Source of the DNA: Pyrinomonadales bacterium
GTDB taxonomy: Bacteria > Acidobacteriota > Blastocatellia > Pyrinomonadales > Pyrinomonadaceae
Assembly: GCA_038230715.1 (NCBI GenBank)
Contig: JBBRMS010000009.1
Coordinates: forward strand, 4,945 to 68,944
Length of the DNA: 64,000 bases
Direction: 5' to 3'
This document shows positions 37,554-62,135 of this stretch, one piece after another. Numbering within the stretch: the first letter of the stretch is position 1; the number at the start of each line of letters is the position of its first letter. The notes beneath the pieces are model-generated. The model saw only the letters and a list, made by a program, of their open reading frames with translations. It was not told the DNA's origin and made no database searches. The translations under genes and the position numbers were made by a program.

Positions 37554-40500
37554 ATGCGAATTCTGATCTTCCCTCGTGGTCGAAAAACTTTTCTGCCGCT
37601 CACCTTTGGCTTTGGGTTGCTGGTCGTCGCTGCGGTCCTTTTTCTCGCCCCTCGATCCGAGGCGAACAGGCCAACCGCTTCTCAAGAGTCTCAACTTGTC
37701 ACCAGCAGCAAACCCGCTCGAGCCGAGTTTGTGCCGGGTGAAGCGCTGGTGCGATTCAAGCAGAACCGGGCTTTCGAAGGCGTGAGAGAACTGGCAGTGC
37801 CCAATCAGGAAGCAATCGCTCAAGGCAATTCACGGGCGGGCTCAAGCGCTTCGGCCTCGACCGAAGAGGTTCTGGTACAGGTCGAACGTTTTGAAGGATC
37901 AGATCTGGTCGACGGGTTGCGAATCGCACGCACTGCTCCGGACGATACGCTCAAAGCAGTAGCTGCGCTCGCTGCCCGCGATGATGTCCTGTATGCCGAA
38001 CCGAACTACATCCTGCACACTGACAGGACGCCCAACGATCCGAGCTATGTGGTTATTCCTACTCAACTATATGGATTGAACAAGATCGGCATGCCGCAAG
38101 CATGGGACACCATTACCGGAAGCACCGGAGCCAGCCAGATTGTGGTGGGCGTGGTTGATGAAGGTGTCGACATCAAACATCCGGATCTCCAAGCGAACAT
38201 CTGGACCAACCCTGCGCCGGGTGCACTTCCGGGATTCAGTCCGAAGGTGCAATTGAGCGCCGCGAGTTACAGTGTTGGCGAAGGCGGCGGCGCAGCTACC
38301 GTTACGGTGAACCGAGATCCCGGCGATCTGCACGGCTTTGATTTTGTGAGAACCACTGGGGACATCCCGGCGGAATTTCACGGTACACACGTGGCGGGCA
38401 CGATTGGAGCAGTCGGCGATAACAGCGTCGGGGTGGTGGGAGTCAACTGGCAAGTTGGCATCATGTCTCTGAGGTTCATCGACCAGACCACCAATAACGG
38501 CAATGAAGCCGATGCAATCAAGGCGTACAACTATGCTCGACAGATGCGCGCGCTGTGGCTCAGCAGCGGAGGCACGCAGGGCGCCAATGTGCGGGTACTG
38601 AATAACAGCTACGGCGGCTCGTCTTTTTCACAGGCTTCCTTCGATGCTATCAGCGCCCTCAACACGGCGAATATTCTGTTCGTGGCAGCGGCTGGCAACG
38701 AGAAAGCGAACACCGACCTCTCTCCGCATTTTCCATCAAGTTACGATTTGCCTAATGTGATCTCAGTCGCTGCGACAGACTCGAACGACGGATTGGCTGG
38801 TTTCTCAAACTTCGGCGCCCGCTCGGTCCTGCTGGGGGCGCCGGGAGTCGGAATTCTCAGTACGACTCCGAATAACACCTACTCACCCCTCAGCGGCACA
38901 TCGATGGCCACACCTCATGTGGCGGGCGCTGCGGCTTTGTTGTTAGCCCAGAACCCCAATCTGACCGTGGCCCAGTTGCGTGCGCTGCTTGAGTTCAATG
39001 GCGATCCCGCCGCGGAGCTGGCCGGCAAGACAGTATCCGGGCGACGATTGAATGTGGCCAACTCTATGCAGGCGCTCGCGTCCAACGACGTCAACCCCCC
39101 GGGAACAGTCACCAGCTTTCAGATCTCATCGCAAACCGGCCGCACTGTAAATCTCTCCTGGATCTCATCGGGTGACGATGGACTTGTCGGCAACGCTTCG
39201 CTTTACGAAATTAGTTTTGTTGACTCGTCGACCAATGCGACCACTACTCTGACGACCGTTATTCCCACGCCCACCGGGCAGCTGCAAACTGTCAGCGTCA
39301 ACATTCCGTATCGCCACACGGCGGGCACAATCAAGCTCCGGGAATTCGATAATGTCGGCAACGAAGGCACGCCGGCGATGCTCAGCGTCAATGTCGATCC
39401 GCTCGTGGGGGATCCTTATATACCGAGCCTCGCCGCTCCCGCTGCTCTTTCATCCGGGGGAACGGGTCTGGTGTTCAATTGCGACGACTGCTATCGCACT
39501 AGGGCATTACCCTTCAACTTCACATACTTTGGAGTTACCTACCCTGCGAACAGCTTAATCAAGGTCGGAAGTAACGGGACAATTTATTTCGAGCCTCCTA
39601 CTGCGCCCACCCGCCTCAATGGCGAAGCAAATGATGTCCCCAGTTCAGTTGGCGGAATGTCGCCGTTCAGAATGATCGCAGGCATGTGGGACGATCTGGA
39701 TCTGCGTACTTCGAGACGCGCGGATGCAGACGTTTACTTTATCCAGCCCGATGTCAGCCGGTTCATCCTGCGCTGGCAGGGAGTGCAGTTCGGCAACGGT
39801 GTAACCGGCGGTCCGGTTAATTTCGAAATTGAGTTGAACTCTAGCGGCGTGATCAAAACCCGCTATGGCAGCGGCAACACGAACCTGCTGCCGGTAGTCG
39901 GAATCTCCGGCGGCGAGCCGGACGTTTATTCGATCAGCGCGCTCACTTCTGAGTCGAGTCCAATCAGTCTCACCAATGCTCAGAGCGCCGTCTTTACCCC
40001 GAGAAGCCTCGGCCCAATTGCACCGCCGGACGGGATTTCAACTGCGGAACAAACGCGTGCGCCTCTGCCGTCGTCGGCGGTCGATCCCAGCCCCGCCGCC
40101 GCAGAGATAACACCTCAGGTGAGCAACGTAACCGTCGCCTTTGCGACGAGCGACACAGCCGGCGCGCAGCCCTGCAGTACTGTGAACGGAAGGGCTTCGT
40201 CACGTTGCGACTACCTGACCACCCTCGGAACGATCAGTTTTGCCGATGGTGAAAATTCGAAGACCATCCGCATCCCCATCATCGACGACACCTTTATGGA
40301 AGGGCCGGAAACCTTCACGGTAACTTTGAGCAATGCTTCGGGCGTGCCGATGGGAACGCAAACGACCGCGACCATAAGCATTACCGACAACGACTCTACC
40401 AGTGCGGGGAATCCGCTCGACACCACCGGGTTCTTTGTGCGCCAGCACTATCTTGATTTTCTTAATCGCGAACCTGACGCTTCGGGCCTGGCTTTCTGGA

Positions 40501-41207: not shown

Positions 41208-41383
41208 GAAAAGTCGACAATTCCGGGCCGGGCCGCGTCAAAATGATGGCAACTAATTGATTGACAGCCCTAAGCCGGGCCGCTACACTTCGTGATGCCT
41301 CTCAGGTGAAAGCACCTTTTATCAGACCAGACGCCAGCCCCAATTCTGGTTGGTTTTCCAACAGGGACCAGGAGCCGCAAAAG

Positions 41384-42364
41384 ATGAAAATCGCAGTTAC
41401 CCTTTTAGTGATCGCGCTTGCTGGCGTGAGTGCGTTGGCGCAGAGTCCGACTCTACGCGTAGTCACCGACGACCCTAACCTGCCGTCCGAACTCTACTAC
41501 GGCAACGTAAAAGTTAAACCGTTGCGAGTCAGACCCGGAACCAATCCACCACAGCTGATCACGATTGATGATTCTGATTTCTTTGTGCAACAGCAGTACG
41601 TGGACTTTCTGAATCGCATGCCGGACCAGAGCGGCTTCGCCTTCTGGAACAACAACATCACCAACTGCGGGGCAAACGCTACGTGCATTGACGCCGCGCG
41701 GGTTAATACTTCAGCCGCCTTCTATCTCTCGATTGAATTCCAGACAACCGGATACCTGGTCGAACGCATGTATAAGTCGGCCTATGGAAGCGCGAATGGA
41801 ACCTCGACATTTGGCGGGACCCATACACTGCCGGTGCCGATCGTGAAACTGAGCGAGTTTATACCCGACACCAAACAGATTGGTTCAGGACTAATCGTCG
41901 GTCAGACGGGTTGGGAGGCGGTCCTGGAAGCGAACAAGCAGAGCTTTGCGGTCGCTTTCGTGCAACGCACCCCCTTCACCGCCGTGTATGCTCCCTCGAT
42001 GACCCCAGCTGCGTATGTCAACGCTCTCTATGCGAATACCGGCATCACGCCTTCAGCGACAGACGTCAGCACAGCCGTCGGGGAGTTCGGCGGCGCCTCT
42101 GACATCAGCAACGTGACCGCGCGGGCGAAGGCGCTGCGAGACGTGGCCGACAATCCGGCTTTGTCGACCCAGGAATTCAATCGGGCTTTTGTGCTGATGC
42201 AGTTCTTCGGTTACCTGCGACGAGATCCGAACACCGGCAACGACACCGACTACACCGGCTATGACTTCTGGCTGACCAAACTGAATCAGTTCAGCGGCAA
42301 TTTTCAGAATGCCGACATGGTCAAGTCGTTCATCGTCTCAAGTGAATATAAAGCCAGGTTCTGA
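41384..42364 (+). CDS. Protein B: secreted protein consisting almost only of the shared double-DUF4214 module
   Basis: ATG 41384 gives signal peptide MKIAVTLLVIALAGVSALAQS, then about 37 aa, then the module at 41558-42361. Confidence 0.85.
   Translation: MKIAVTLLVIALAGVSALAQSPTLRVVTDDPNLPSELYYGNVKVKPLRVRPGTNPPQLITIDDSDFFVQQQYVDFLNRMPDQSGFAFWNNNITNCGANATCIDAARVNTSAAFYLSIEFQTTGYLVERMYKSAYGSANGTSTFGGTHTLPVPIVKLSEFIPDTKQIGSGLIVGQTGWEAVLEANKQSFAVAFVQRTPFTAVYAPSMTPAAYVNALYANTGITPSATDVSTAVGEFGGASDISNVTARAKALRDVADNPALSTQEFNRAFVLMQFFGYLRRDPNTGNDTDYTGYDFWLTKLNQFSGNFQNADMVKSFIVSSEYKARF
41558..42361 (+). repeat. Shared C-terminal module, copy B (268 aa)
   Basis: DSDFFVQQQYVDFLNRMPDQSGFAFW...AAFYLSIEFQTTGYLVERMYKSAYG...EFNRAFVLMQFFGYLRRDPN...GYDFWLTKLNQFSGNFQNADMVKSFIVSSEYKARF. 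It shares the exact 23-mer TTTGTGCTGATGCAGTTCTTCGG with copy A (41025-41047 vs 42188-42210). Confidence 0.9.
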
Positions 42365-42391
42365 GACCTGCTTTACTCCGAACATTCAAAG

Positions 42392-42507: not shown

Positions 42508-43638
42508 CTATCGCAATAGGAGTTCTCTGTAGACCTCCAACGTCATCCGCGCCGTCCTCTCCCATGAATACTGTCCGGCGTGCTCCCGCCCCGCTGCCCC
42601 CAACGCCTGTCGCTGATTGGTATCCTTGAGCAATTCGACAATTGTGCCGGCCAGGGCATTCACATCGAGAGGTTCGACCAACCGTGCGGCACTGCCTAAA
42701 ACTTCCTGCAAACTCGGAATCCGGCCAGCAATTACCGGCGCACCGCACGCCATCGCCTCAAGAGGTGGCAAGCCGAATCCTTCGTATACAGACGGATAAG
42801 CAAAAACTTTACAGGACGAATAGAGCCCTCGCAGTTCCTCGTCGCTTAGATAGCCAGTAAAGCAGAGGCGATCACTAATGCCCGAGCTCCGAATGAAGGC
42901 AAACATGTCATCCATCAACCAGCCTTCACCGCCGGCGATTACAAGTTGAGGACGCAGATCCGTATGCTCGATTATCTGTTTGAATGCCTTGAGCAGGGTG
43001 AGCAGGTTCTTGCGCGGTTCGAGCGTGCCGACAAAAAGCACGAAATCGTCTGCGATTCCCAAACGCTTTCTGAGTTCGGCGCTTTGCGCGAATGGTAACG
43101 GCTTAAAGCTGCCTCGCGCGGCTGAATGAATGGCCGTTACGCGATCGGGTTTGATCTTGAAACGCTCACAGATCTCGCGCTTAACGCTTTCAGTTGGGGT
43201 GATGATCCGGTCGGCAAAGCGGACCACCAAAGGCAAACGCAAACGGGCGCGGCGCACGAGCCGTGAGCGATGCTTGTCGGGGTGCAACAGTGCTGACAAA
43301 TCATGGATGGTAACGACACTTCGTCCCTGCTTCCATAACGGCACGTCAAAGTTGGTCCCATGAAATAAGTCAAAGGCAGCCCGGCGGATGTACATCGGCA
43401 AACCGATAGACCACCAGTGGCCCCGGATCGAAGAGGCTCGCGGATTTTTGGTGAGCAGGTTGGGCAGGCTCGCGTGCTTAATTTCAGCCAGGGCGGTGTC
43501 ATTGAAAGGAGCCGGCGAAACCAACTCAAACTCATCGCGGGGCGAGATGAGGGCCAGCGAGCGCGCCAGTTCCAGCGTGTAGTGACCGACTCCGGTTCTG
43601 GGTTCAGCCAGCGGATATCCGTCAATTCCTACACGCAT
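42508..43638 (-). CDS. GT4-family (group 1) glycosyltransferase
   Basis: GT-B C-terminal signature [33 protein letters not shown] (EX7E region) and an N-terminal GT4 domain. Confidence 0.85.
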
Positions 43639-43697: not shown

Positions 43698-46600
43698 TCA
43701 GAGTCCGAATCGCTGTTTGTATTCGGTTGAGGTGATGAACGCCTTGACCATCTCGGCGTTGACGAAGTTGCCGTTGAATTGATTCAGCTTGGCCAGCCAG
43801 AAGTTGTACCCTCCGAAATCGAGGGTTGCTTCCGGCGCATCGTTTGGATTGCGCTGCAGGTAACCAAAATATTCCATCAGCACAAAGGCCCGGTTGAATT
43901 CCTGTTGGGCCACCATCGGATCCTCGGCGACCAGGCGGAGGGCGCGGGCCCGCGCCGCTGCATCGGCGGGTGTAGTCGAGTTGAACTCACTGACGGCCGC
44001 GGCCCGATTTGTTCCTGACGCCGGAGCGAGCCCAACATTTGTATAAAGCTTGTCCACGAACTGCTGGGCAGTTAACCCGGAAGCAAAGGCCGTGGTAAAG
44101 GCAGAGCGCTGTACGAAATCATTAAAGAACGTTTGCTTGTTCGACTCGAGCAGAGATTCCCAACCAGTCTGATTCACGATCACGTCGTGACCGATCTGTC
44201 TGGTATCAGGCAGAAACGCACTCAACCGCACAGGCACCGGCGTGCCGGCGATATCACCGTAGGCGGCTTTGTAACTTCGATAAACCAGGTAACCGGTCTG
44301 TTGGAACTCAACCGAAAGAAAGAACGCCGCCGAGACATTGATGCGCTTGATCTCGATGCACTGCTGATCGCTGCCGCATGAATTGATCTGGCTGGTCCAG
44401 AAGGCAAAGCCGGCTGAATCAGGTTCGCGGTTGAGGAAGTCCAGATATTGCTGCCGCACGAAATAATCGGTGGTGGTGATCGGATTTGGAGCCGGGGAAC
44501 CACCCGCATTAATCGTGACGTGGGGAGCGGTGTCGTTGGGCCGGCTGCCCGCGCCCCCGACTGCCACCACGATAGGTAGATCTCCGGTATCAACGGTTGA
44601 CGGCAAGGTAAAGTCAAACTCATCATTCCCTGGCAAATCAATGAATCTCGCCGCCCTCGGTGTAATCACTGTCGTACCCACCCGGACAGTTAACGAACTG
44701 GCGAGGGTGTTACGGATGCCCGTTAGGGAAACTCTGAGGACAGTGGGCACCTGCGCACCGGTACCGTCATTCGTAGTCACAAAGAACGGCTCAGGCGTGC
44801 ACACGGTTGGATTAGTAATGTTGCAAACCTTGGCCCGCCCCAAAGGTCCGTTCGTGCTGGTAAATATGTCGGGTTGAGTCGCGACGATCACGATCGAACC
44901 CCGAACGACTGTGCCTTTGTTGTTGATGACGATGTTATAGGTACCAGGCGCTAAACCAATCGGCGCGACAAATTTGATCTCGCCCGAGGCCACCGCATAG
45001 AGGCCGCAAGCGGCGTTATTGATGGCTACCGAAACACCATTCAACTCAATCGGCAGAGCGGGTGCGCGTCCCGATTCCGAGGCGTTGCTGTTATTGACTG
45101 TGACAGTCGCATCGGACAGGCTGGTGCTGGACTGGAAAAATCCCAACTCGCCGGGCGCCAAACCCAGAACCACGAACGGAGTCGGACTACCGGTTGGTGT
45201 AGGTGACGGCGATGGCGACGGACTGGGTGATGGGCTGGCCGTGGCCGTCGCGGTTGGACTCGCGACCGGCACCGGGATGCGGCTGGCGCCCGTGGACGAT
45301 GTAAGTGTTCCCGCTGACTCGGTCGCGATGGCTGGCGTTAGCTGATAAAAGGTCTCGACTGTGCTATCCGAATTGCCGCCGCCCAACTCCGCCGTGATGC
45401 TCATTACCATCCGCCGACCGGTGCGCCCTGCGGCGGCGTTGACACCGTTATCGGGAATGCCCCGCAGCGCGACAAAGCTCGGAATATTTGTCAGTCGCGA
45501 AAACGGTCCGGTTGAAATGGCCGGCAAAGGAGCCAGGAAAACCTGCTCGACATGCCTGGTATTTAAACCTGTCGTCGCATCCTGCGCTTCCGTTGGGAAA
45601 GATCCATCGGTATTAAAGTTCAGCGCCGAAGTAAAGATTACCGAGGCCGGCCGCAAGGCTGCGTCATAGTCGGTAAACGTCGGGTAATGGAGTATGTCTC
45701 CGCTGAGGGATCGCGGTCCCACCTGCGCAAAGGTGTCGGCTGAGACATCGTAAACAAAGGTAACCGGGTACTTGATTGGGACGGCGTCAGCTTTTGGATC
45801 AGCAGCAGCAGACTCGAAAGCAATCAATTTTCCGTCGCGACTCAAGCGGCGGCCAAACTGAAATCCATTCGTCGTCGAAGTCACATTCCCGTTCGTATCG
45901 AGGGCGTCTTTTGTCTTCGTGACCTGTTTCAGGCCGCTGACCACACCCGACGCGGGGTTGAAATTCGCCAGATAGATCTCGGCATTCAAATCGGTATTCG
46001 TAGTCAACAAATTCGAGTTTGAGACAAAAGCCAGGACCGACCCATTACTGGAAAGAGTTGGATTCGAACTGAAGATGGGGTTCTTGAACGACGTCGACTT
46101 TGTGTTCGTTATCTGTGTAAACGGTCCCGTTCCTACAGCGTTGTCACTGGCGACAGTCCGATAGAGAAACACCTCCGGATTGGCAACTCCCGCCGGCACG
46201 GCATCGGCATCAACATTACCTCCCGCGACAATGTCCCGGTTTGAGGTAAAGGCTATGACTGCGCCGTCATCACTGATGGTGGCATCGCGGTTATCAAAGG
46301 CAACTCGCGGCGCCGGCGAGGTCGACGAACCCGCGACTGGGGGGGCGCTCGCAGGTGTATTGGTAATCCGCGTGAACGTTCCTGTAGCTAGATTGACCGG
46401 CCCTACATCTGCTCCACTTGCCAGCGCTGACTGTGGAATCTCGGGCACAGTAAACCTGTAAGTCCAAATCTCCTGATTCATGTCCGTAGCGATCGTGCCG
46501 CCCGGATTAGTGCCGTCAAAGCTCGCCGGGGTGACGGGAGCGTTCGAACTAAAAACAATTGTGTACGTGCGTTGACCGGCAACCAGCAGCGGCTCGAGCG

Positions 46601-47111
46601 TAATCATCGGCTCGTTGTTGCTGATTTCAATGGCCACGTTGCTCGGATCTACCGGCGTCGGAGTGGGACTGGCCGTTGGTGTCGGACTGGCTGATGGACT
46701 GGCACTCGGACTGGGGCTTGGACTTGGACTTGGACTCGGAGTTGGCGAAGGGCTGCCGGGCGGATTCAGGACGCTCTTGGTATTCGTCAGCTGAAAAATT
46801 CTACGCTGCGCATAGTCAAACAGAAACAGCTCGCGATTGCCGTCCTCGTTGTTGCGAGGATTCGCGTTCGGGGTGCCACTGGCATTAAACGTAGCGATCT
46901 TCTCGGTCGCAATATCACCGTTTGATTCAATGACGACAAAGCGTCCGTTGGCCGAGATATCTCCCGCAAAGGAATCGCGGTTGGTGCGAGTTATCTGGCT
47001 GACAAACGGATCCGGAGTGGAATTGGCAGGCGCTTGCGCCGTAGTCAGCGCGCTGGCGACGAGCATACACGCCGCCGCGGCGCACAAGAAAGCAATAACC
47101 AGTCTTATCAT
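43698..47111 (-). CDS. Protein C: secreted PD40/TolB-like beta-propeller protein with two Pro/Ser/Thr linkers and an Ig-like (TIGR03437-like) domain, ending in the shared module
   Basis: The start at MIRLVIAFLCAAAACMLVASALTTAQA gives a signal peptide. Repeats of the type ISANGRFVVIES...NEDGNRELFLFD, ISDDGAVIAFTSN, LSSNGSVLAFVSN and LSRDGKLIAFES. Linkers PSPTPSPSPSPSPSPSASPSASPTPTASPTPTP and ASPSPSPSPSPSPTPTGSPTP. Ig-like region LNGVSVAINNAACGLYAVASGEIKFVAP. The module is at 43701-44486. Confidence 0.85.
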   Translation of the reverse strand: MIRLVIAFLCAAAACMLVASALTTAQAPANSTPDPFVSQITRTNRDSFAGDISANGRFVVIESNGDIATEKIATFNASGTPNANPRNNEDGNRELFLFDYAQRRIFQLTNTKSVLNPPGSPSPTPSPSPSPSPSPSASPSASPTPTASPTPTPVDPSNVAIEISNNEPMITLEPLLVAGQRTYTIVFSSNAPVTPASFDGTNPGGTIATDMNQEIWTYRFTVPEIPQSALASGADVGPVNLATGTFTRITNTPASAPPVAGSSTSPAPRVAFDNRDATISDDGAVIAFTSNRDIVAGGNVDADAVPAGVANPEVFLYRTVASDNAVGTGPFTQITNTKSTSFKNPIFSSNPTLSSNGSVLAFVSNSNLLTTNTDLNAEIYLANFNPASGVVSGLKQVTKTKDALDTNGNVTSTTNGFQFGRRLSRDGKLIAFESAAADPKADAVPIKYPVTFVYDVSADTFAQVGPRSLSGDILHYPTFTDYDAALRPASVIFTSALNFNTDGSFPTEAQDATTGLNTRHVEQVFLAPLPAISTGPFSRLTNIPSFVALRGIPDNGVNAAAGRTGRRMVMSITAELGGGNSDSTVETFYQLTPAIATESAGTLTSSTGASRIPVPVASPTATATASPSPSPSPSPSPTPTGSPTPFVVLGLAPGELGFFQSSTSLSDATVTVNNSNASESGRAPALPIELNGVSVAINNAACGLYAVASGEIKFVAPIGLAPGTYNIVINNKGTVVRGSIVIVATQPDIFTSTNGPLGRAKVCNITNPTVCTPEPFFVTTNDGTGAQVPTVLRVSLTGIRNTLASSLTVRVGTTVITPRAARFIDLPGNDEFDFTLPSTVDTGDLPIVVAVGGAGSRPNDTAPHVTINAGGSPAPNPITTTDYFVRQQYLDFLNREPDSAGFAFWTSQINSCGSDQQCIEIKRINVSAAFFLSVEFQQTGYLVYRSYKAAYGDIAGTPVPVRLSAFLPDTRQIGHDVIVNQTGWESLLESNKQTFFNDFVQRSAFTTAFASGLTAQQFVDKLYTNVGLAPASGTNRAAAVSEFNSTTPADAAARARALRLVAEDPMVAQQEFNRAFVLMEYFGYLQRNPNDAPEATLDFGGYNFWLAKLNQFNGNFVNAEMVKAFITSTEYKQRFGL
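43701..44486 (-). repeat. Shared C-terminal module, copy C (262 aa)
   Basis: NPITTTDYFVRQQYLDFLNREPDSAGFAFW...AAFFLSVEFQQTGYLVYRSYKAAYG...EFNRAFVLMEYFGYLQRNPND...GYNFWLAKLNQFNGNFVNAEMVKAFITSTEYKQRFGL. Confidence 0.9.
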
Positions 47112-47472: not shown

Positions 47473-50400
47473 TCAGTTCCCGAAGCGCTGCTTGTACTCA
47501 CTCGAGAGAATAAATGACTTAACCATCTCGGCGTTTACAAAGTTCCCGCTAAACTGGTTCAGTTTGCCCAGCCAGAAGTCATAGCCGGAATAATCTGAAT
47601 CCTGCGGGTCGTCCGGATTACGCCGCAAGTAGCCAAAGAATTGCATCAACACAAAAGCGCGATTCTTTTCCGCGTCGGCGAGTGCCTGATTCTCGGAGAC
47701 GGCGCGCAGGGCCTGGGCTCGCGTCTTCATACCCGCGGTCAAGTCGCTCACCAGCTGGTCACGTTGCGCCGTTGATAAAGGCATCACGCCCCCGGTGGCG
47801 GCCCGGGCATTTAGCTGATTGACGAACTGAGTTGGCGTCATCGTCAATGGGTAATCCGTCAGGAAACGCGCGCGCCCGACAAACTCTTCCGCGAAGGCGG
47901 CCTTGTTGTCATTAATCTGCTGTTGCCAATTTCCCTGTCCCACCACCACGCCCTGCCCGATCTTTTGTGTATCGGGCAGAAACTCGTTCAGACGAATTAC
48001 TGGCACGGCTATTGGGTGCGCCCCGCCGATCGCTGAAGTGCCGGTAGCATCACCATACGCCGCCTTGTAAATGCGATACACCAGGTAGCCGGTATCCTGA
48101 AACTCGATCGAAAGAAAGAACGCGGCCGAGGTGTTGATCCGCTGCACTTCGATGCACGAGGGCTGTGGCGCGCAGCCGTTGATGTTGTTAATCCAGAAGT
48201 TCAGGCCGCTCGCATCCGGCTCGCGATTAAGAAAGTCGATGTAGTGCTCGCGCACAAAGAAACTCGACGTGTCGACCGGATTAACGCCATTCGCCGTTTC
48301 ATCGTCGATGATCGTAAGCGTAATCGTGCTGGGCAAGCCGAGGGTCACGTTGCTGCCGCCGACCGCGCTGAGTGTTACGGTGAATGTCTCAGGCCCTTCA
48401 AGATACCGATCGTCGACGATCGGTATCAGGATGTTCTTTGAAGTCTCGTTCGCGGCAAAGTTCAGGGTCCCGGATGTGGCGATATAGTCGCAACGCGAAG
48501 ACGCGGATCCACTGACGACGTTGCAGTTGTTGGCCCCCGATGTATCGCCGGTCGAGTAGTTAACTGAGGCCGGGAACGAGGTGTCGCCGCTGCGCGTAAT
48601 CGTAACCGTCTTGCTTACCTCGGCCTCGCCCAAAGCATCCGCTGCCGCGCTGAACTGAACCGTGCTCGCGGCCGGGCTAATCAAGGGTGTCTCCCAGACA
48701 CCGCGGCCGTGCGTGGCGGCGCGCAGCAGACGGAAGCTCGGCTGAATCTTCAGATCAAACACCGCCGAACGCGGCAGACCGGTGCCAAACGGGACCCAGT
48801 TCGCGCCGCCGTCGGTGGAGTTGTAAACGCCAATGTCGGTGCCGGCGTACAGGTTGTTTGAGTTCAGCGGATCGATCACCAGGGCATTGACCGGAATGCT
48901 GGGCAGGCCGTTGCCGGCGGCGGTCCACACTGGGGCCGCGGGCGAAGCACCCGATGCCGCAATCAGATTTGAGATCTTCCAAATCCCCTGCCCGGCCGGT
49001 GCAAAAAACGAAAATGTGACGTAAGCCACATTCTTGTTGTTGGGATCGATGGCCGCGCGGCCAACGAACTTGTTGGTGAGGCTGCCGTTGGGATTTGTGG
49101 GAAATGAACCGCTGGTAAGGTTAACCATCGTCGATGAACCAGTCGACGTGGCCCATACCTGTCCATTCTGTAATCCCACCAGACGCACGTTATCGCCGCC
49201 GGACCAGACCGCAATGGAACTGATGGGCGAACCGACCCCACCGGGGCTGCTGAGTGACCCCTGACTTACGACAGCCATCGTGTCGCCTCGATCAGTCGAA
49301 CGATAAAGCCGGTCGGTTCCGAAATAGACCGTGTTCGGGGAGCCCGGCCCGAGTGCCATCGGCGCGTAGAACAAAACATTGTCGGTAAGACTGAGCCCGT
49401 TGTGGAGATAATCAGCGGTCCCATCGCAGGAAAGGCTGGGCTGCTCAGCATCACCTCCGCTCACGAAACCAATGCCGCGAGTCGGCCAGAAATTCTTAAA
49501 CGGCAGGCAGGTTGTGTTAACGGCTCGGTCGAAACCGATCTGGGTTCCAGTCTGATTGAAGAACGTGTGATACATATTCACGTTCGTGGCATTGGTCGCG
49601 CTTTGATCGATCAGACAATAGCCGCCATCGCCACCTTCGGCGTTGCTCCAATTCCCTGCCGAGGCTGACTGGTACTCAGTCCCATTGTCCTGGGTCCCGC
49701 CGATCATCAGAAATCGATCGGTTGGATGAACTGCGATGCTCTCGAATTGGAGAGTATTTAGCGGCGCGCTATTGAGATTCGTCCAGGAGGTCGCAACTGT
49801 GTTGGTGGCCGGCTTCTTCCACACTCCGCCGTCGTTGCCTGCAAAAATCGTCCCACCGGTCGCATCAAAGGTAAGCGCGTGGGAATCGGCGTGAGTGCCC
49901 GTGTCATCGCGGAAAAAGGTCGCGCCGCCGTCAGTTGATTTCTTCATACCATCTGAACAGGTGCTGTGCGCATTCCCAGCCAGATAAATTTCACTAGCGT
50001 TGTTCGGGTTGACGGCCACCGCGATGTCATAGAAACACTGGCTGCCACAGAAGCCTCCACCTCCCGCAAGTATTGACCACGTGCCAACGCCAAATGGGTC
50101 GACCCCCTTGCGAACAGTGCCCGAGCCAGTCGTACACGTCTGACCGTTTGAAGAAAATGGCGTCTCGCTGGTGGCCGCGTATGCCGTCACCACCGAACCT
50201 ACTTTATTAATCGTTAGATTCGACCGCACGCCCAGGGCGAGGGATCGAACCTGGGTAAAGGTCGGAGTGGCGGCGGTGGCGTTGGTCGTGCGATAGATGC
50301 CGCCAAAAGTCCCTGACGCTCCGATCACCGACACCAGGATGTTATCCGGGACTCCCGGCTCCATTACCATGTCAGGCGTGTCGAGGTTCCCTGTTGCCGG

Positions 50401-51414: not shown

Positions 51415-51822
51415 GCTTGGTACTCGGAATTCAGGAGTAGCTTCGTTAACTGGAGTCTGTGCCAGTAGCCGTGTGTCAGACTTTTGCTTTACTGGTGATG
51501 CGGCCGGGGCTGTATTTGATGCACTTCAAGAAGGTTTGGATACACCGGCCAGAAGAAAAATCAGGGTGGTCTAAGTTTTCAACCGACAGGAAATAAGAGT
51601 TATAGATGATCCCGTCTTTCGGCAAAGCAACTTTATTATTGGCGCCGGAGGATGTCAACGGAACGGCGAGGTCGGTCTGTGCTTTGCCCTCTGAGAAAAC
51701 GACGCAACCGCGTTGCGGTTGAACCGGGAGGAGAACCCCGTCGCTACCGCTCCCGGTACTGACTTCAACCTTCTGCGGCCTCGCTATGCCGGTATTGGGC
51801 AAGCTGAAGAGTGCGTTACAAA

Positions 51823-54357
51823 CTACTTCATCCACTGACCGATCTTCTCGGTCCCGAAGGTGCCGATGCCGTTTAGCCGGAAGGCGAAGACAATTCGATT
51901 CTCGTTCCGCAGGCCCACGTTGAAAGTGTAGTCCTGCACCGTCACTGAGCAACATTTCCAGGTGTAGCCGAGGGTGGCCGTCGAACTAATCAACGAACGG
52001 TTGCTGCCCGCAAACGGGTGTTTCTGAAAATCGAAGAAGAGCGACAACCCGCCAAACAATCCTTTGTCGCGATTGCCGAGAAAGACCGACGGGCTCCATT
52101 GCGACCCGCGCAAGGTGCCCGGCTCGCGGCCGGCCGCGTTCGCGTATTGCGCCAAACTGGGAACCAGTTTCACCGCCCGCGTGTAATAAAAAGTCGAGAA
52201 GGCCTGGACCAGTGCCCGGTTAAGTCCGAAGGTAGCGGACATCGCCCGCAATCCACCGCCCTTAGTATTCAAATCAGCGCGAAAGTCAGCAAACAAATGC
52301 TCTGACGGGCGATACCGAACGTCGACATTGACGGGCGAGAACTTGCGCGGCACGGCTCCATAAGTGAAGCCGGAAAAAGTATCGATGGGAGCGAACTGGT
52401 TGCGTCTTCCGGGAATCAGGGCCCCGCCGAAATACGGATCAAAGAAATACTTGCCCCGGATGGTAATCGTTAAGGCTTCGTAAGGCTGGGTGGCCAGCGA
52501 AGCTTTCTTCTCGCGGGCCGCGCGCTCGGCTTTCTTGCCCACAGTCTCGATCGATCGGCGAGTGTAGAAGCGATTGGAAATGCCGTACTCAATTTCGTTC
52601 GTGTCCGCGATAGCGTCGACATAGTCGAAGCGGAGAATCTGATTAAAGTTATCGATGCCCGCGACGCGCCGGTAGATGACATAAGGCTCAATCACATGTC
52701 GAAACCTGACCGACCCGTCATCGCGCCGGAAATTGCGCGCCAGCGCGGGCGGCCGCAAATCAAGCTCCAACTCGCCGTAACCTCGCACCACGTCGCGCGG
52801 CGTTACCAAACCAGTGACCGGATTAATCGAGTTTGAATAGTAAGTGGCGCGCGCGCCGAGCGTGGTCGTCAACGACCAGCCCGAGAAATTAAGCGGGATG
52901 GCAATGTTGGGATGAAGATCAAAGCGCTGCACCACCGAAGGCGTGATAATCGGGTCACGTCCGGCTTCGGCGCGGAACGTCGCGAGGTCGCTGGGCGTCT
53001 CTTTTCGGCTGACGCCTTCGACAGCGGTTTCAAAGGAGTAGTAGACGGGAACGTTTCTGAACCAGTGCACCGGCGACGGCCGCCGATCGAGGGAAACGCT
53101 GGGCAACTCGCGAATACGAATCCGTGAATTTTGCAGAGTGGTCGCCTGTGAGTTGAGCCGCAGATTGAAACTGTAGGCGTGATAGTTCTTGTTAATGAAA
53201 ACCTGGGAGCGTTCCTCCGGCGAGATTGCGGCCTGAATCGAGTCAGAGAAGATCTGTCTAAACGCAAGATTCGAAGTAATGTTTACGTCGGCCGCCGCCA
53301 GAAATCCATTGGGGAAATAATGGACCGCGTCGATATAAAAACTCGAGCCTCCCTGGTTCGGATGGGTGGCGTCCTCTTTGGGTCCAAACATGCGGTCCTT
53401 GACCGCATAGAAACCCAGATTGAGAAACGAACGGGAATTAGCGCGGGTACGCAAATCGCCGCCAATGCCAATGCCGCGCTGAGAAAAAAAGTCACCGCGA
53501 AGAGTCAAGTCGGCCGAGCGGCCCAGCGTCAGATAGTAAGCGTCGGATATCCGAAAGCCCTTGGCGCCTGAACCACTGAAGGTCGGGGTCAGGAAACCGG
53601 ATTGGCGATCGTCATGCTTGAGAGATAACGACGCATACGGAAGATAAATCACCGGCAGGTTCTTGATGCGAAAGGTAGGCGAGGAAAGCTTCACCTTATC
53701 GCCGGCCTTGATCCTTGCCTTCTTTGCACGAAAACTCCATTTGGGAACTTCTTCGTCGCACGCAGTGATCTCGCCATTCGTGACGATGATCGTGTCGAGG
53801 CTGATTCTGTCGACTCGATCGGCAGTGAAATACATGCGCGTGCCGTCATTGGTCTGATTGCTATAACCGGTCGAGTTGAGAAAGAAGCCGGTCTTGGTCT
53901 TGTAATTCCATTCCGCGCGGCTACCGGTGATGCGCTGCTGATCGCCCTGATCAAAAACCACGTTGCCTTCGGCGATCACCTTGTTGGTGGCGTCGTAGAC
54001 CGTGACCTTGTCAGCCTGCAAACGGTAAGTGCCGATGCGCGCATCAACGTTGCCTTCACAAACCGATACCTGCGATCCCTTCGCACCGGTTACAGTCTCC
54101 TTGTTGCACTCCAAAGAAAGTTTGTCCCCCGGTTGAATCGCGACAGGTTTTCCCGAAGTCGTCGGCTTAACCGGCTGATCCTGTTGCAGCGGATTTACGT
54201 TCGGCGTGTCCGTGATCGGATTTTCGACTTTGCGATCGACGGGATTGGTTTGTTGCGCGTAAGTGGGGACGGTGAACAAACAGCCGAGCGCAACGCCTGC
54301 CAGCAAAGGCAAAACGCGCGTCACTCGGAACCTGATTGTCGAAGCCATGCCGAGCAT
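51823..54357 (-). CDS. lptD: LPS-assembly outer-membrane protein LptD (OstA family)
   Basis: Signal peptide from MLGMASTIRFRVTRVLPLLAGVALG. N-terminal OstA-like beta-jellyroll (LQADKVTVYDATNKVIAEGNVVFDQGDQQRITGSRAEW) followed by a very large beta-barrel-like region. Divergent from lpxB. The ORF track's TTG start at 54396 is less likely. Confidence 0.75.
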   Translation of the reverse strand: MLGMASTIRFRVTRVLPLLAGVALGCLFTVPTYAQQTNPVDRKVENPITDTPNVNPLQQDQPVKPTTSGKPVAIQPGDKLSLECNKETVTGAKGSQVSVCEGNVDARIGTYRLQADKVTVYDATNKVIAEGNVVFDQGDQQRITGSRAEWNYKTKTGFFLNSTGYSNQTNDGTRMYFTADRVDRISLDTIIVTNGEITACDEEVPKWSFRAKKARIKAGDKVKLSSPTFRIKNLPVIYLPYASLSLKHDDRQSGFLTPTFSGSGAKGFRISDAYYLTLGRSADLTLRGDFFSQRGIGIGGDLRTRANSRSFLNLGFYAVKDRMFGPKEDATHPNQGGSSFYIDAVHYFPNGFLAAADVNITSNLAFRQIFSDSIQAAISPEERSQVFINKNYHAYSFNLRLNSQATTLQNSRIRIRELPSVSLDRRPSPVHWFRNVPVYYSFETAVEGVSRKETPSDLATFRAEAGRDPIITPSVVQRFDLHPNIAIPLNFSGWSLTTTLGARATYYSNSINPVTGLVTPRDVVRGYGELELDLRPPALARNFRRDDGSVRFRHVIEPYVIYRRVAGIDNFNQILRFDYVDAIADTNEIEYGISNRFYTRRSIETVGKKAERAAREKKASLATQPYEALTITIRGKYFFDPYFGGALIPGRRNQFAPIDTFSGFTYGAVPRKFSPVNVDVRYRPSEHLFADFRADLNTKGGGLRAMSATFGLNRALVQAFSTFYYTRAVKLVPSLAQYANAAGREPGTLRGSQWSPSVFLGNRDKGLFGGLSLFFDFQKHPFAGSNRSLISSTATLGYTWKCCSVTVQDYTFNVGLRNENRIVFAFRLNGIGTFGTEKIGQWMK

Positions 54358-54500
54358 GCTGTAAGCTGCCGACCTCCGCGCTGGGGCTATAATCAAAATG
54401 CGCCTTCTGCGAACTCGAATGAACCCCCAGCAGGCGCGCCGTTTTCGCTAACGGAATGCGGCGATGCTAACATGCGCGCGCGACGCGTCACAAGGAAGGA

Positions 54501-54597: not shown

Positions 54598-54624
54598 TAA
54601 TGGAAAATGGTCTTTAGACTATCC

Positions 54625-55800
54625 ATGGGCCAGAAACCGAAAGACCATTTAAGACTAATGATCGTCGCTGGCGAAGCTTCAGGCGACGCGCATGCGGCGG
54701 CGCTGGTCGGCGCGCTTCAGACAGCCGCGCCTGAAACTCAATTCGACTTCTTCGGCTCGACCGGGGCACGAATGCGTGCCGCCGGGGTTGATTCAGTGGT
54801 CAAGGCTGATGAACTGGCGATCCTCGGGCTGTGGGAAATCGGCAGAGCTTTGCCGAAGTTCTGGCGCGCCTTTGGCGAACTGAAACTGGCGGTGAGTGAA
54901 AGAAAACCTGAAGCGGTAATCCTGGTTGACTGGCCCGACTTTAATTTGCGGCTCGCGCACTGGTTACATCGCCAGGGTGTGCCGGTCATCTACTACATCA
55001 GCCCGCAACTTTGGGCCTGGCGTTCTTACCGCGCTCACAGCGTGGCTCGCGACGTTGACCTGCTGTTATCGATCCTGCCATTTGAAAAGGACTGGTACGC
55101 CGCTCGCGGTATCACGAACGTTGAATATGTCGGTCACCCCCTGGCTGGTGAAGTTCGACCGAGCTATGGACGCGAAGAGTTCTGCCGGCGCAACGATCTT
55201 GATCCCGGTCGCCCGGTGGTGGCCCTCCTGCCCGGCAGCCGGCACAAAGAACTCGTGCGAATTCTGCCGCCGATGATCGAGGCGGCTGCCCTCATAGCAA
55301 AGCAGCGCTCGGACGCTCAGTTCGTCGTGGTGGTCGCGCCAAATCGAGACCCAACGGAAGCGCGCGGGATAATCGCAAAGGGCGAGTACGATCCGGCATT
55401 CAAAGAATCGCTGCGGCTGGTTCATCACGAGACCCGCGAGGCGCTGGCTGCCGCAGACGTCGCGGCAGTAGCCAGCGGCACGGCCACCCTCGAAGCTGCC
55501 TTGTTGGGAACACCGCTGGTTATCGTCTATAAAGAGTCGGCCATAAATTGGCACACGCTGGGGAGCCTGATCACGGCCGAACATTATGGCCTGGCAAATT
55601 TAATCGCGGGCCGGCGGATAGTGACTGAGATGATTCAGAATCAATTGAACGGACCCGACCTCGCAGCAGAGTTGCTGAGAATGCTGGAACCCGCATGCAA
55701 CGCTGCGATGAGATCTGAGTTGAAGAGTGTGGCTGAGAAGATCGGTGAGCCCGGAGCATCGGCCCGCGCCGCTGGCGCGATCCTGAGATTCATGAGGTAG
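54625..55800 (+). CDS. lpxB: Lipid-A-disaccharide synthase
   Basis: LMIVAGEASGDAHAAALV, YYISPQLWAWR, ATLEAALLGTPLVIVYK. The start is ambiguous among 54607, 54625 and 54658. Confidence 0.9.
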   Translation: MGQKPKDHLRLMIVAGEASGDAHAAALVGALQTAAPETQFDFFGSTGARMRAAGVDSVVKADELAILGLWEIGRALPKFWRAFGELKLAVSERKPEAVILVDWPDFNLRLAHWLHRQGVPVIYYISPQLWAWRSYRAHSVARDVDLLLSILPFEKDWYAARGITNVEYVGHPLAGEVRPSYGREEFCRRNDLDPGRPVVALLPGSRHKELVRILPPMIEAAALIAKQRSDAQFVVVVAPNRDPTEARGIIAKGEYDPAFKESLRLVHHETREALAAADVAAVASGTATLEAALLGTPLVIVYKESAINWHTLGSLITAEHYGLANLIAGRRIVTEMIQNQLNGPDLAAELLRMLEPACNAAMRSELKSVAEKIGEPGASARAAGAILRFMR

Positions 55801-57887: not shown

Positions 57888-57890
57888 TCA

Positions 57891-59556: not shown

Positions 59557-59759
59557 TAACGCGCCCGGTGTGGAGTGCGCTGCCTTGCGAGCGCGACTTG
59601 TCACCGCGGTCTGAAACGAAACCAGTCTCGTCCGGTCGAGGCTTTTGAAGGGCGGCAACAAGGTGCCGCCTTCCACGTCATCGTATTCAATTGAAAAGGC
59701 GCCGCTCACTTGAGAGCGACGCCTTTATCTTCCATTCACAGACTACAAGTTTGACTTCG

Positions 59760-62135
59760 CTACTTCGGAAAACGCCCGCGGTATTCAGCCGAGGTGATGA
59801 ACGCTTTCACCATATCCGCGTTTACGAAGTTGCCGTTGAACTGATTGAGTTTGCCCAGCCAGAAATTGTATCCCTGATAATTGAGCGTCGATTCCGGTGG
59901 ATCGTTCGGGTTGCGTCGCAGATAACCGAAGTACTCCATCAACACAAACGCTTTGTTGAACTCAGCCGATTTTAGCTCCTGGTCTTCGGCGACGATCAGC
60001 AGCACCTGGCCGGCGGTTTTGGTTTCGGATATCAGATCGGCCACCAATTGGTCTCTCTCGGCAGTCGTCAGCACACCGCCGGCGTTCGCATTGATGGTGT
60101 CCACGTATTGATCAACCGATGTGCCGGCCCGAAAAACTTCGGCAAACCGCGAACGGCGCGCAAAGCCCTCAACGTATGTCCGCTTATTATTCTCGAGAGT
60201 AGCTTCCCAACCCGTCTGGCCCACGACCACGCCCTGTTGCAGTTGTTGCGTATCCGGCAGAAATTCGCTGAACCGAAGCGGGACTGGCGCGTCGGATATA
60301 TTCCCGTAAGCGGTCTTGTAAGTGCGATAGACCAAATAACCGGTCTGCTGAAATTCAATCGAGAGGAAGAACGCCGCGGAGGCATTCACCCGTTTGAGAT
60401 CTCGGCAATTCGCGTCCGAGCCGCAACTATCGATCTGATTCACCCAGAAGTTAAAGCCCGCTTCGTCCGGTTCGCGACTGAGGAAGTCCAGGTAGTGCTG
60501 GCGCACAAAGTATTCAGTGGTGTCCAGCGGGTTCAATCCCGCCGCCGTGAAGGTCGCGGTAAACGACGCGTCGGTATGCAGCCCCGGGTGAACAAAAGTT
60601 CGCAGCGCCGGAGTGAAAGCGTAGTTGGCGCGGGCCGGTGTCGCTGTGTATGAACTATTGACGCCCACGCCATCAAAGCGATAGTTACCCTGAGAATCCG
60701 TAATCGTTAACCGGGTCTGGGCGCCCTTCAATCTAATAGCCACGCCTTCCACCGGGGCGCTATTGGTATCGAGAATGCGACCGGAAATATCGCTGGCCTG
60801 CACCGTGACCAGATAACGAGCGAGCGCGATATCAGCCTGTCCAATCGTGGCGGTCGATCCAGTCACGACAATCTTGTTGTCTGCCTGGATTACCAAGCCT
60901 CTGCCGTTTTCGACGTTACCGGAAAAATCAGTAGTAACTTTTCCACCCGCGCCGAAGGTCGCGTCGAGAGAGCCGTTGGGATTGTAGCGAGCCAGTCCAA
61001 AGTCGCCAGTTGAGCCCGTAGTCAGCTTCGCCGCTCCGGCCAGAACTATCTTTCCATCGATCTGCAGGGCAATCGCTTTCGCCCGGTCAGTTGTGCCGTT
61101 GAAGTCGGTCGTGACGATTCCGTTGGTACCGAACGAGGTGTCTATAGAACCGTTCGCCAAGTATCGCACCATGCCAAAGTCCTGTGCAAAATTCGCCTGG
61201 CCGCCGGCAATTATTCTTCCGTCCACCTGAATGGCGAGGGCAAAAATTTCATCGTCTTCACCGTCGCCGGGTACGACCTGTGTGGTGACTTTGCCACTGC
61301 TGCCGAAACCAAAATCGAGCAACCCACCGGCCGTGAAACGCACCAGTGAGAACATTACAAACGCCCCACCCGTGGTCAGCGTGGATCCGCCCACAACGAT
61401 CTTACCGTCGGATTGAATCGCGAGGGCATTCCCAAAATCGCGGGTGTTGTTGATATTAATGACGACCTTGCCAATTCCGAAGCCGCCGAAGGTGGTGTCC
61501 AGCGCCCCGTTAGTGGTGTAACGCGCAAGGGCTGTGTGCGCATCACCGACCGTGGCGAAGCCCGCCAGGACGATCTTTCCATCGCTTTGCAAGCCGATTG
61601 AAGTTGCTTGATCAAGACCTCCGTTGAAGTCGGTCGTAACTTTGCCGCCGGCGCCAAAAGTTGAATCGAGAGAGCCGTTCGAGTTGTAACGGACGAGCGC
61701 AAAATCGAACTGTGTCGCAGATCCGAGATTAGCGGTGCCGGCCACCAGGATTTTACCGTCAGGCTGAACTGCTATGGCAAAGCCAACATCGCTGAGACCG
61801 GCAAAATCTGTGGTGACCCTTCCACCGGTTCCAAACGAAGCGTCAAGTGAGCCGTCAGCATTGTAACGAGCCACGGTGAGATCGGGCGCACCCTGCGCGC
61901 TTAGCCCGTCTCCGGTCACGACAATTTTTCCGTCCGGCTGCAACGCAATTGCATTCGCGGCATTACTGCGATTGGAGAAATCAGTGACAACTTTCCCTGC
62001 TGATCCGAAAGCTGGATCCAGATCACCGTCAGTCGCGGCGCTGGTGCCGCTCACAAAAATAAACAGAGTAGCTATGACAATCGCGGTCGATACAATAATG
62101 GTAGTTCGTACAGAATTTTGGTAATGGAATCTCAT
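59760..62135 (-). CDS. Protein E: secreted delta-60-repeat protein with carboxypeptidase-regulatory-like domain, ending in the shared module
   Basis: The start at MRFHYQNSVRTTIIVSTAIVIATLFIFVSGTSAA gives a signal peptide. There are about 9 repeats of the form DGSLD.(S/T)FG.GGKVTTDF......A.A...Q.DGKIV.(A/T)G. CarboxypepD_reg-like region ISGRILDTNSAPVEGVAIRLKG...TDSQGNYRF. The module is at 59763-60533. Confidence 0.85.
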   Translation of the reverse strand: MRFHYQNSVRTTIIVSTAIVIATLFIFVSGTSAATDGDLDPAFGSAGKVVTDFSNRSNAANAIALQPDGKIVVTGDGLSAQGAPDLTVARYNADGSLDASFGTGGRVTTDFAGLSDVGFAIAVQPDGKILVAGTANLGSATQFDFALVRYNSNGSLDSTFGAGGKVTTDFNGGLDQATSIGLQSDGKIVLAGFATVGDAHTALARYTTNGALDTTFGGFGIGKVVININNTRDFGNALAIQSDGKIVVGGSTLTTGGAFVMFSLVRFTAGGLLDFGFGSSGKVTTQVVPGDGEDDEIFALAIQVDGRIIAGGQANFAQDFGMVRYLANGSIDTSFGTNGIVTTDFNGTTDRAKAIALQIDGKIVLAGAAKLTTGSTGDFGLARYNPNGSLDATFGAGGKVTTDFSGNVENGRGLVIQADNKIVVTGSTATIGQADIALARYLVTVQASDISGRILDTNSAPVEGVAIRLKGAQTRLTITDSQGNYRFDGVGVNSSYTATPARANYAFTPALRTFVHPGLHTDASFTATFTAAGLNPLDTTEYFVRQHYLDFLSREPDEAGFNFWVNQIDSCGSDANCRDLKRVNASAAFFLSIEFQQTGYLVYRTYKTAYGNISDAPVPLRFSEFLPDTQQLQQGVVVGQTGWEATLENNKRTYVEGFARRSRFAEVFRAGTSVDQYVDTINANAGGVLTTAERDQLVADLISETKTAGQVLLIVAEDQELKSAEFNKAFVLMEYFGYLRRNPNDPPESTLNYQGYNFWLGKLNQFNGNFVNADMVKAFITSAEYRGRFPK
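59763..60533 (-). repeat. Shared C-terminal module, copy E (257 aa)
   Basis: NPLDTTEYFVRQHYLDFLSREPDEAGFNFW...AAFFLSIEFQQTGYLVYRTYKTAYG...EFNKAFVLMEYFGYLRRNPND...GYNFWLGKLNQFNGNFVNADMVKAFITSAEYRGRFPK. Confidence 0.9.

Follow-up and report, generated by a model that had tools for sequence, protein, structure and literature searches.

What could one and the same C-terminal module do on five exported proteins that otherwise have little in common? This question is raised by a 64,000-nucleotide stretch of the genome of a Pyrinomonadales bacterium (Acidobacteriota, class Blastocatellia; contig JBBRMS010000009.1, positions 4,945 to 68,944; the whole stretch is called the window below), in which five genes, here named A to E and all located within positions 37554-62135, encode proteins ending in the same module of about 257-272 amino acids (aa). 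A first-pass annotation, made from the sequence alone, had noticed this constant unit, had read it as two repeats like the domain DUF4214 (PF13946) around a conserved core and had suggested a role in surface anchoring or co-assembly. We find that the module marks a very large family of protease, propeller and adhesin-like proteins. Tentatively, and at a little less than even chances, we propose that it is a shared, non-catalytic surface-retention module which binds a conserved component of the cell envelope, most plausibly lipopolysaccharide (LPS) or a surface glycan.

Five exported proteins with a common C-terminus

Searching the window with each module by tblastn recovered exactly five copies, at the positions where the first-pass annotation had placed them. 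The copies are 47-69% identical in pairs (E 1e-81 to 1e-128) and their five-way alignment has a mean column identity of 70%; no sixth copy was found in the window, the next-best match having E >= 0.35. Hydrophobic, signal-peptide-like N-termini can be read from the translations of all five proteins, for instance MKIAVTLLVIALAGVSALA followed by QSP in protein B. The genes, the domains that abut the module and the module copies are located as follows.

37554..41207, + strand: gene A, 1217 aa, likely start ATG 37554; signal peptide, S8 subtilase, Calx-beta and C-terminal module (Peptidase_S8 E 7.5e-50, Calx-beta 4.8e-16, DUF4214 5.5e-11)
40146..40394, + strand: Calx-beta domain of A, abutting the module (Pfam, residues 865-947)
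40410..41204, + strand: module copy A, 265 aa (tblastn, alignment; predicted local distance difference test, pLDDT, in AlphaFold2 mostly 83-98)
41384..42364, + strand: gene B, 326 aa, likely start ATG 41384; signal peptide, conserved N-terminal segment of ~45 aa and module (Pfam: DUF4214 alone)
41558..42361, + strand: module copy B, 268 aa (tblastn, alignment)
43698..47111, - strand: gene C, likely start ATG 47111; signal peptide, weak PD40-like region, Pro/Ser/Thr linkers, Soli_cterm (TIGR03437) and module
44541..45119, - strand: Soli_cterm (TIGR03437) domain of C, abutting the module (NCBIfam, residues 666-858 of the query, E 6.8e-14)
43701..44486, - strand: module copy C, 262 aa, without a 9-aa beta-hairpin insert (tblastn, alignment)
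47473..51414, - strand: gene D, 1313 aa, likely start ATG 51414; signal peptide, weak BNR/sortilin-like propeller region, Calx-beta and module (Calx-beta E 4e-13, DUF4214 2.4e-11)
48301..48663, - strand: Calx-beta domain of D, abutting the module (Pfam, residues 918-1038)
47476..48282, - strand: module copy D, 269 aa (tblastn, alignment)
59760..62135, - strand: gene E, 791 aa, likely start ATG 62135; signal peptide, seven delta-60/DUF5122 repeats, CarboxypepD_reg and module (DUF5122 E 2e-68, CarboxypepD_reg 1.9e-8, DUF4214 2.4e-10; TIGR02608 E 6e-105)
60567..60788, - strand: CarboxypepD_reg domain of E, abutting the module (Pfam, residues 450-523)
59763..60533, - strand: module copy E, 257 aa, without the 9-aa insert (tblastn, alignment)

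The module is immediately preceded by a beta-sandwich domain in four of the proteins, by Calx-beta in A and D, Soli_cterm in C and CarboxypepD_reg in E. Of the N-terminal domains described earlier, the S8 and Calx-beta domains of A, the Calx-beta domain of D and the delta-60 repeats and CarboxypepD_reg domain of E were recovered, as was the lack of any such domain in B; at E <= 0.01, A showed no sign of an FN3-like or NIDO-like domain. The propellers of C and D are seen as weak matches only (PD40 in C at E 0.0012, below the Pfam cutoff; BNR in D below cutoff, as is an F510_1955-like NCBIfam match with E 7e-19), and what had been called an Ig-like domain in C is Soli_cterm.

This last domain, named 'Solibacter uncharacterized C-terminal domain' and described as C-terminal in another acidobacterial lineage, is internal here and stacked ahead of the DUF4214 module; protein C also contains long linkers of the SPSPSPTP type. 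In the S8 domain of protein A, ~40 aa appear to be inserted between the region of the catalytic Asp and that of the catalytic His (~38200-38400, + strand), and the start of this insert resembles a Calx-beta strand (VQLSAASYSVGEGGGAATVTVNR).

Two DUF4214-like repeats in one helical unit

The first repeat is a clear DUF4214 in all five copies, scoring 40.8-51.3 bits (E 2e-10 to 1e-13) against a gathering cutoff of 23.2 bits and covering the first ~30-60 residues of the module. If the last ~75 aa are scanned alone, DUF4214 is again the sole match in all five, just under the cutoff (19.7-22.9 bits, E 9e-5 to 9e-4), and the two repeats align profile to profile over 50 columns (hhalign probability 84%, E 7.6e-6). 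Since the last ~75 aa match DUF4214 alone and the repeats align with each other, the module, judged by its sequence, holds two DUF4214-like repeats, the second of which is missed by standard annotation. The two repeats claimed earlier thus stand, the second as DUF4214-like.

Between the repeats lies a helical middle of ~110 aa, which matches no Pfam family, and the module as a whole has no NCBIfam model. The alignment bears out the motifs noted before: they are invariant in all five copies together with both Cys residues, and conservation extends to the last residues. The proteins end in ...MVK(A/S)FIxSxEY(K/R)xRFG, with neither a hydrophobic stretch nor a C-terminal transmembrane helix.

Two AlphaFold2 models were made. 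The first, of mature B (73 sequences), reached a moderate pLDDT of 70.6 and was superseded by the second, of Calx-beta plus module of A (125 sequences, pLDDT 84.6, predicted template modelling score 0.82). In the second model the module is a single all-helical unit of ~15 helices. The 9-aa insert, present in A, B and D and absent from C and E, forms a small beta-hairpin, and the invariant Cys pair (C-x5-C) is located in the loop between helices 2 and 3. This loop is likely stapled by a putative disulfide, which would fit an extracytoplasmic location. In Foldseek the Calx-beta part matches the CBD1/CBD2 structures of Na+/Ca2+ exchangers with probability 1.0. A sequence search of the PDB with the module profile returned nothing relevant (a single match, to a cement protein, E 0.38), and all that a viral fold library yielded were matches to Calx-beta and, below significance, to a few DUF4214 proteins of phages.

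A large family with variable cargo

The module is by no means confined to the five genes. In a protein database clustered at 90% identity, a profile search scored at least 7,250 of 8,000 candidates at E <= 1e-5, and when the representatives at 50% identity were searched exhaustively, 9,782 clusters matched at E <= 1e-3, of which 2,807 also passed E <= 1e-30. Among the GTDB species genomes there are at least 560 confirmed module matches. The best 80 of these, from 50 assemblies, form the genome loci on which the locus counts below rest; all belong to Blastocatellia, Pyrinomonadaceae, Chloracidobacterium, "Acidobacteria gp4" or generically named Acidobacteriota metagenome-assembled genomes (MAGs), and the composite module appears restricted to Blastocatellia in the genomes sampled. 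Blastocatellia are subdivision 4 of the Acidobacteriota and are known mainly from soils; to our knowledge, their cell-surface biology is almost unstudied.

Each module of the window has its nearest relative outside the window, with 81-100% identity versus 58-69% within it. Since every copy has such a closer relative elsewhere, the five are, as far as identities tell, old paralogs with orthologs in other genomes. A merely local, recent duplication, named in the first-pass annotation as a condition that would refute its reading, is thereby ruled out.

What had first been described for the window, a C-terminal unit that stays constant while the N-terminal domains of its Sec-exported carriers are unrelated, proved to be a feature of the whole family. 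In 114 of 119 full-length copies from the 80 loci the module ends within 6 aa of the stop codon; 33 of the 80 loci contain two to four copies, and one assembly at least 10. Among 59 family representatives, all with a Pfam match to DUF4214, 50 Pfam families co-occur with the module. Calx-beta is found in 42 of the 59 representatives and, in the family consensus, directly ahead of the module; other cargo includes FG-GAP, SBBP, PQQ, PD40, Kelch and BNR propellers, Big_3_5, cadherin, CarboxypepD_reg and Ice_binding, and is mostly of extracellular types. A crude hydrophobicity test gave a signal-peptide-like N-terminus in 88 of 112 complete representatives.

Protein B is the extreme case, being essentially the module alone. 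It is 100% identical to database protein P0012 (326 aa), matches DUF4214 only in Pfam and nothing in NCBIfam, and has orthologs in 10 of the genome loci. Metagenomes contain many such module-only proteins, which are 321-327 aa long. The N-terminal ~45 aa of mature B (window 41384-41557, + strand) are 93-96% identical in the orthologs of L001, L004 and L006 and 69-85% identical in those of L041, L035 and L049; a small beta-hairpin is predicted for this segment with low confidence.

A strict C-terminal position on varied Sec-dependent cargo, with many substrates per genome, follows the same logic as known C-terminal sorting domains. The module could therefore serve as a signal for sorting or for translocation across the outer membrane, read by a secretion machine of its own as is the C-terminal domain (CTD) of the type IX secretion system (T9SS) and perhaps removed afterwards. 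We consider this quite unlikely. With ~265 aa and a helical fold, the module greatly exceeds known sorting domains in size and differs from them in kind, and, as had been argued before, it resembles none of the familiar tags: the five proteins have no Pfam or NCBIfam match to the T9SS CTD (TIGR04183 / Por_Secre_tail), PEP-CTERM or LPXTG and no match to the S-layer homology domain (SLH, PF00395), and their C-terminal region is helical. Secretion genes do not recur near module genes, either among the open reading frames (ORFs) of the window or in the 80 module loci, and a conserved protein without cargo, like B, would be difficult to explain as a substrate.

Conservation within the family is extreme. 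In a comparison of 400 unique modules, 99 of the ~266 positions reached 90% conservation or more, among them 12 F, 5 Y and 3 W, and the Cys pair was invariant. Because such conservation is kept on unrelated extracellular proteins, it suggests a single conserved binding partner. The wealth of conserved aromatics would also fit a module that, like a carbohydrate-binding module, attaches its carriers to an external polymer or mineral such as plant, fungal or microbial polysaccharide or the soil matrix; proteases and glycosidase-like propellers are among the cargo, and secreted hydrolases (GH5, M10) are encoded nearby in the window. However, much of the cargo is non-enzymatic and of a binding or adhesin-like kind, B has no cargo to target, helical carbohydrate-binding modules are unusual, and near-invariance across thousands of proteins argues for one ligand encoded by the cell itself. 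Targeting to the environment is thus very improbable in our view.

Weak fold matches to RsaA and phycobilisome linkers

With neither AlphaFold2 model did Foldseek find a PDB match at E <= 1e-3. Both models gave the same best match for the helical module, and it was the only one of note: the N-terminal domain of RsaA, the S-layer protein of Caulobacter, in its LPS-bound structure (6T72_A). The values were probability 0.85, template modelling (TM) score (target) 0.37 and root-mean-square deviation (RMSD) 12.1 Å over 255 columns for the first model, and probability 0.87, TM (target) 0.41 and RMSD 8.1 Å over 258 columns for the second, which also matched 6Z7P_A with probability 0.91. We regard this fold resemblance between predicted models and RsaA as a reproducible, sub-threshold lead. 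The two domains would be comparable in kind: the RsaA domain, matched end to end over these columns, is likewise all-helical, has ~250 aa and stands at one end of an exported protein, which it anchors non-covalently to the LPS O-antigen. In RsaA, unlike in the module proteins, the domain is N-terminal and the protein is secreted by a type I secretion system (T1SS).

Sequence homology between module and RsaA is unsupported, the Pfam scan and three hhalign comparisons all being non-significant. The RsaA N-terminal domain (6T72 sequence) has its own Pfam family, RsaA_NTD, and no DUF4214 match. Each hhalign comparison recovers only one short stretch, in which VrqhYxDFLnRePDxsGxxFW of the module is aligned to an RsaA motif. 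By eye, up to three degenerate DUF4214-like motifs (Y...LG.xPDxxG...) can be seen in RsaA (6T72) at residues 8-32, 60-87 and 135-165, for example LVTAYTNANLGKAPDAAT; only the second of them is recovered by profile comparison, and non-significantly (E 0.03-0.3). Two proteins (P0331, P0299) show RsaA_NTD (PF19198) in other company: in one, from a Planctomycetales MAG, it is joined to a trypsin-like peptidase, and the other is called 'serralysin' by one source. These fusions therefore provide a precedent for an LPS-anchoring helical domain used as a portable module.

A stronger claim would be that the composite module, and by extension DUF4214 generally, is distantly related in structure to the RsaA N-terminal domain, or equivalent to it in function, and so acts as a general anchor to LPS or surface glycans. 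This we hold to be possible and rather doubtful. If it were true, it would describe a modular LPS-docking form of surface display, in which dozens of enzymes, propellers and adhesins per genome are hung non-covalently on the cell's own LPS; the cargo-less protein B and the conserved core locus linked to the glycosyltransferase of family 4 (GT4), lptD and lpxB would belong to this display system, and a widespread domain of unknown function would have gained a function.

The fold search also touches on a different explanation, in which modules dock onto each other or onto a conserved scaffold, like dockerins or phycobilisome linkers, and B is a structural subunit of a multi-enzyme assembly at the surface or in the matrix. 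The phycobilisome linker domain (PF00427; Gene3D 1.10.3130.20) is a helical protein-protein adaptor, cytoplasmic and cyanobacterial. The helix-rich DUF4214 regions of segmented filamentous bacteria (SFB) have been likened to the fold of such a linker, 2KY4 (PMC3371716), Gene3D 1.10.3130.20 is listed beside DUF4214 in a recent study (bioRxiv 10.64898/2026.09.02.748959), and linkers are among our weak Foldseek matches. Module-only proteins are conserved and abundant, module genes are clustered, and very high conservation of the module fits a protein interface. But the linker matches are very weak (probability 0.08-0.2, TM <= 0.25), PF00427 has no Pfam match on the module at E <= 10, and no conserved partner gene is located beside the module genes in the 80 loci. 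Docking or co-assembly is thus an unlikely explanation, if one to be kept in mind.

Genomic neighbourhood

The window is ordinary chromosome, with genes for RelA/SpoT, SecDF, Tgt, Der, PdxH and TonB. Several envelope genes are interspersed among the module genes, namely GT4, LptD, LpxB, an M23 peptidase and a YkuD L,D-transpeptidase. From LpxB and LptD it can be seen that the source organism makes LPS.

42508..43638, - strand: GT4 glycosyltransferase between B and C (Pfam Glycos_transf_1, E 2e-36)
51823..54396, - strand: LptD-like LPS-assembly outer-membrane protein, directly upstream of D on the same strand (Pfam LptD, LptD_2, LptD_N)
54607..55800, + strand: LpxB lipid-A-disaccharide synthase, divergent from lptD (Pfam LpxB, E 6e-83)

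GT4 is the commonest neighbour of module genes in the 80 loci, being found in 8 assemblies with identities down to ~51% (L006, L011, L035, L041, L049, L080, L021); its orthologs adjoin module genes in 8-9 loci from different assemblies. The enzyme might synthesise the ligand glycan, or it might attach sugars to the Pro/Ser/Thr linkers. Next in frequency are a pair of ORFs of 776 and 562 aa, LptD and LpxB, each in 6 assemblies, and LpxB is co-syntenic in 6 genome loci. The block is thus seen again in other species: gene order is D-C-GT4-B-A in L006 and L035; it is LpxB, LptD, A, another module gene, B, GT4 in L049, L080 and L021, and LpxB, LptD, then module genes in L033, L043 and L060.

Since these loci had been chosen by the module, a second sample was drawn by LptD, consisting of 80 metagenome loci (L081-L160) with LptD 71-87% identical. 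Where at least 5 kb of flank was available, a module ORF was found downstream of lptD in 16 of 27 loci and upstream in 4 of 26; which module gene adjoins lptD varies by genome (A, D or another). Adjacency to lptD is thus common and directional, and not universal. LPS genes as a neighbourhood of the family as a whole are ruled out, being confined to one syntenic block and to the 16 of 27 LptD-anchored loci.

YkuD and M23, both in the same region as the module genes, bring up the idea that the module binds peptidoglycan or another periplasmic structure and that its carriers never leave the periplasm. The proteins have Sec signals only, with no export route across the outer membrane identified, and the short helical repeats of the module are, we presume, superficially similar to PG_binding, which we take as a lead only. 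However, neither gene is syntenic with module genes in other loci, PG_binding, LysM, SPOR and OmpA have no match on the module at E <= 10, and the cargo (Calx-beta, cadherin, FG-GAP, Ice_binding, S8 with prodomain) is typically extracellular; moreover, the published DUF4214 cases are all extracellular or surface proteins. We therefore judge periplasmic retention to be highly improbable.

Some further neighbours were noticed. The large adjacent ORFs (~776 aa and ~562 aa, the second with a twin-arginine-like N-terminus) beside module genes in 6 assemblies, including L017 (888-4755) and L030 (979-4799), may be a pair of the DUF1800/DUF1501 type. A GH5 cellulase-like protein and an M10 matrixin, both without module, are encoded just upstream of A (window 32904-37108, - strand); the matrixin contains a weak CarboxypepD_reg-like region, and the pair is syntenic with A and B in locus L004 (82% identity). 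The 408-bp gap between lptD and D is partly taken up by a 159-aa ORF (51476-51955, - strand), which extends into the 3' end of lptD, has no Pfam match and no homolog in related loci, and is probably not a gene.

Surface retention as the preferred reading

Returning to surface retention, we can picture it as follows. The module would be one folded, helical, extracytoplasmic unit of ~265 aa on the C-terminus of Sec-exported proteins, usually placed after a beta-sandwich domain. Its non-covalent ligand would be a single conserved part of the envelope of the producing cell, most likely LPS/O-antigen or some other glycan of the surface, and each genome would in this way display dozens of different proteases, propellers and adhesin-like proteins on the outside of the cell. 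Protein B, which is module only, might occupy or organise the same binding sites without cargo. In favour of this reading are the constancy of the C-terminus, the diversity of the cargo, the export signals, the conservation and copy number of the module, the fold match to RsaA, the fusion of RsaA_NTD to peptidases, the production of LPS by this organism, the adjacency to lptD and the literature on DUF4214.

Several observations weigh against it. The evidence that bears on module location and on the ligand is indirect, and passage of the module proteins across the outer membrane has to be presumed. The fold match to RsaA is sub-threshold (E 0.11-0.13, TM < 0.5, 11% identity), RsaA_NTD (PF19198) has no Pfam match on the modules at E <= 10, and in hhalign the module profile scored E 0.17 against a single RsaA sequence, 0.12 against a profile of 7 sequences and 0.31 (probability 0.2%) against one of 65 sequences. 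Adjacency to lptD is absent from about 40% of related loci and, with LptD 71-87% identical, may be explained largely by the shared ancestry of close relatives. Most of the 80 module loci are without LPS genes, and there appears to be no dedicated partner gene beside module genes in general, because no neighbour family is found in more than ~10% of these loci. The O-antigen binding proposed for the Pseudomonas protein Psh rests on Boltz-2 modelling and gene context (bioRxiv 10.64898/2026.09.02.748959).

If surface retention is true, the module would define the displayed exoproteome of Blastocatellia and offer a simple sequence handle for predicting it. Being near-invariant, it would also be a tractable model for DUF4214 function, with B as a protein that is essentially the module alone. 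A portable anchor of this type could serve for surface display.

Comparison with known systems

Both the domain family and the principle that variable secreted proteins share a constant DUF4214 tail have been published before, and the novelty claimed for the module at first was to this extent overstated: C-terminal DUF4214 on predicted secreted SFB proteins was described in 2012 (PMC3371716). The composite form of ~265 aa appears uncatalogued in Pfam and NCBIfam, and our literature search found nothing on DUF4214 in Acidobacteria. What looks new is the repeat-middle-repeat architecture with its huge expansion, confined to Blastocatellia in the sampled genomes, as well as the frequent pairing with Calx-beta, the conserved module-only protein, the partial linkage to lptD, lpxB and GT4 and the weak fold resemblance to RsaA.

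A close parallel is found in gut SFB. These are monoderm Clostridia without LPS, and the ligand there would therefore have to differ from that in Blastocatellia. In SFB, 19 predicted secreted proteins of low overall similarity are united by conserved C-terminal regions matching PF13946 (Pamp et al. 2012, PMC3371716), and a 2025 paper terms DUF4214 a 'likely surface-anchoring domain', a role proposed and not demonstrated (PMC12780176). These 'Cluster.1' proteins resemble the module proteins in their dissimilar N-terminal parts, their conserved, helix-rich C-terminal PF13946 region and the anchoring role proposed for it. By their published description they are set apart by low mutual similarity, whereas the Blastocatellia module is near-invariant and, unlike them, has a defined order of repeat, ~110-aa middle and repeat, a C-x5-C loop and usually a preceding Calx-beta domain.

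A similar role, again proposed and not demonstrated, has been suggested in Pseudomonas phage resistance. A 2026 preprint reports on Psh of Pseudomonas putida KT2440, in which RTX repeats are combined with DUF4214. The protein leaves the cell through a T1SS and stops phages at the surface; O-antigen is its proposed ligand, and O-antigen genes are located near its own gene. The same study reports DUF4214 fused to peptidases, peroxidases and Ig-like folds (bioRxiv 10.64898/2026.09.02.748959). Like the module proteins, Psh is an exported protein of a diderm bacterium with a helix-rich DUF4214 domain. It differs in having RTX repeats and an adjacent T1SS, whereas the window proteins have Sec signal peptides and no PF00353 match, and no T1SS genes are present among the annotated ORFs of the window. 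Elsewhere, an extracellular DUF4214 protein is encoded next to an S-layer gene (bioRxiv 10.1101/695007), and a Halomonas DUF4214 protein has been discussed as a possible anchored extracellular enzyme (PMC11970703).

In its build, a helical unit of ~265 aa, the module differs from the well-known C-terminal tags, which are a beta-sandwich of ~80 aa, a short motif with a transmembrane helix or a Ca-binding dockerin. In its organisation it is like all of these: the T9SS CTD, PEP-CTERM, LPXTG, SLH and dockerin systems likewise combine a constant C-terminal unit with variable cargo and many substrates per genome.

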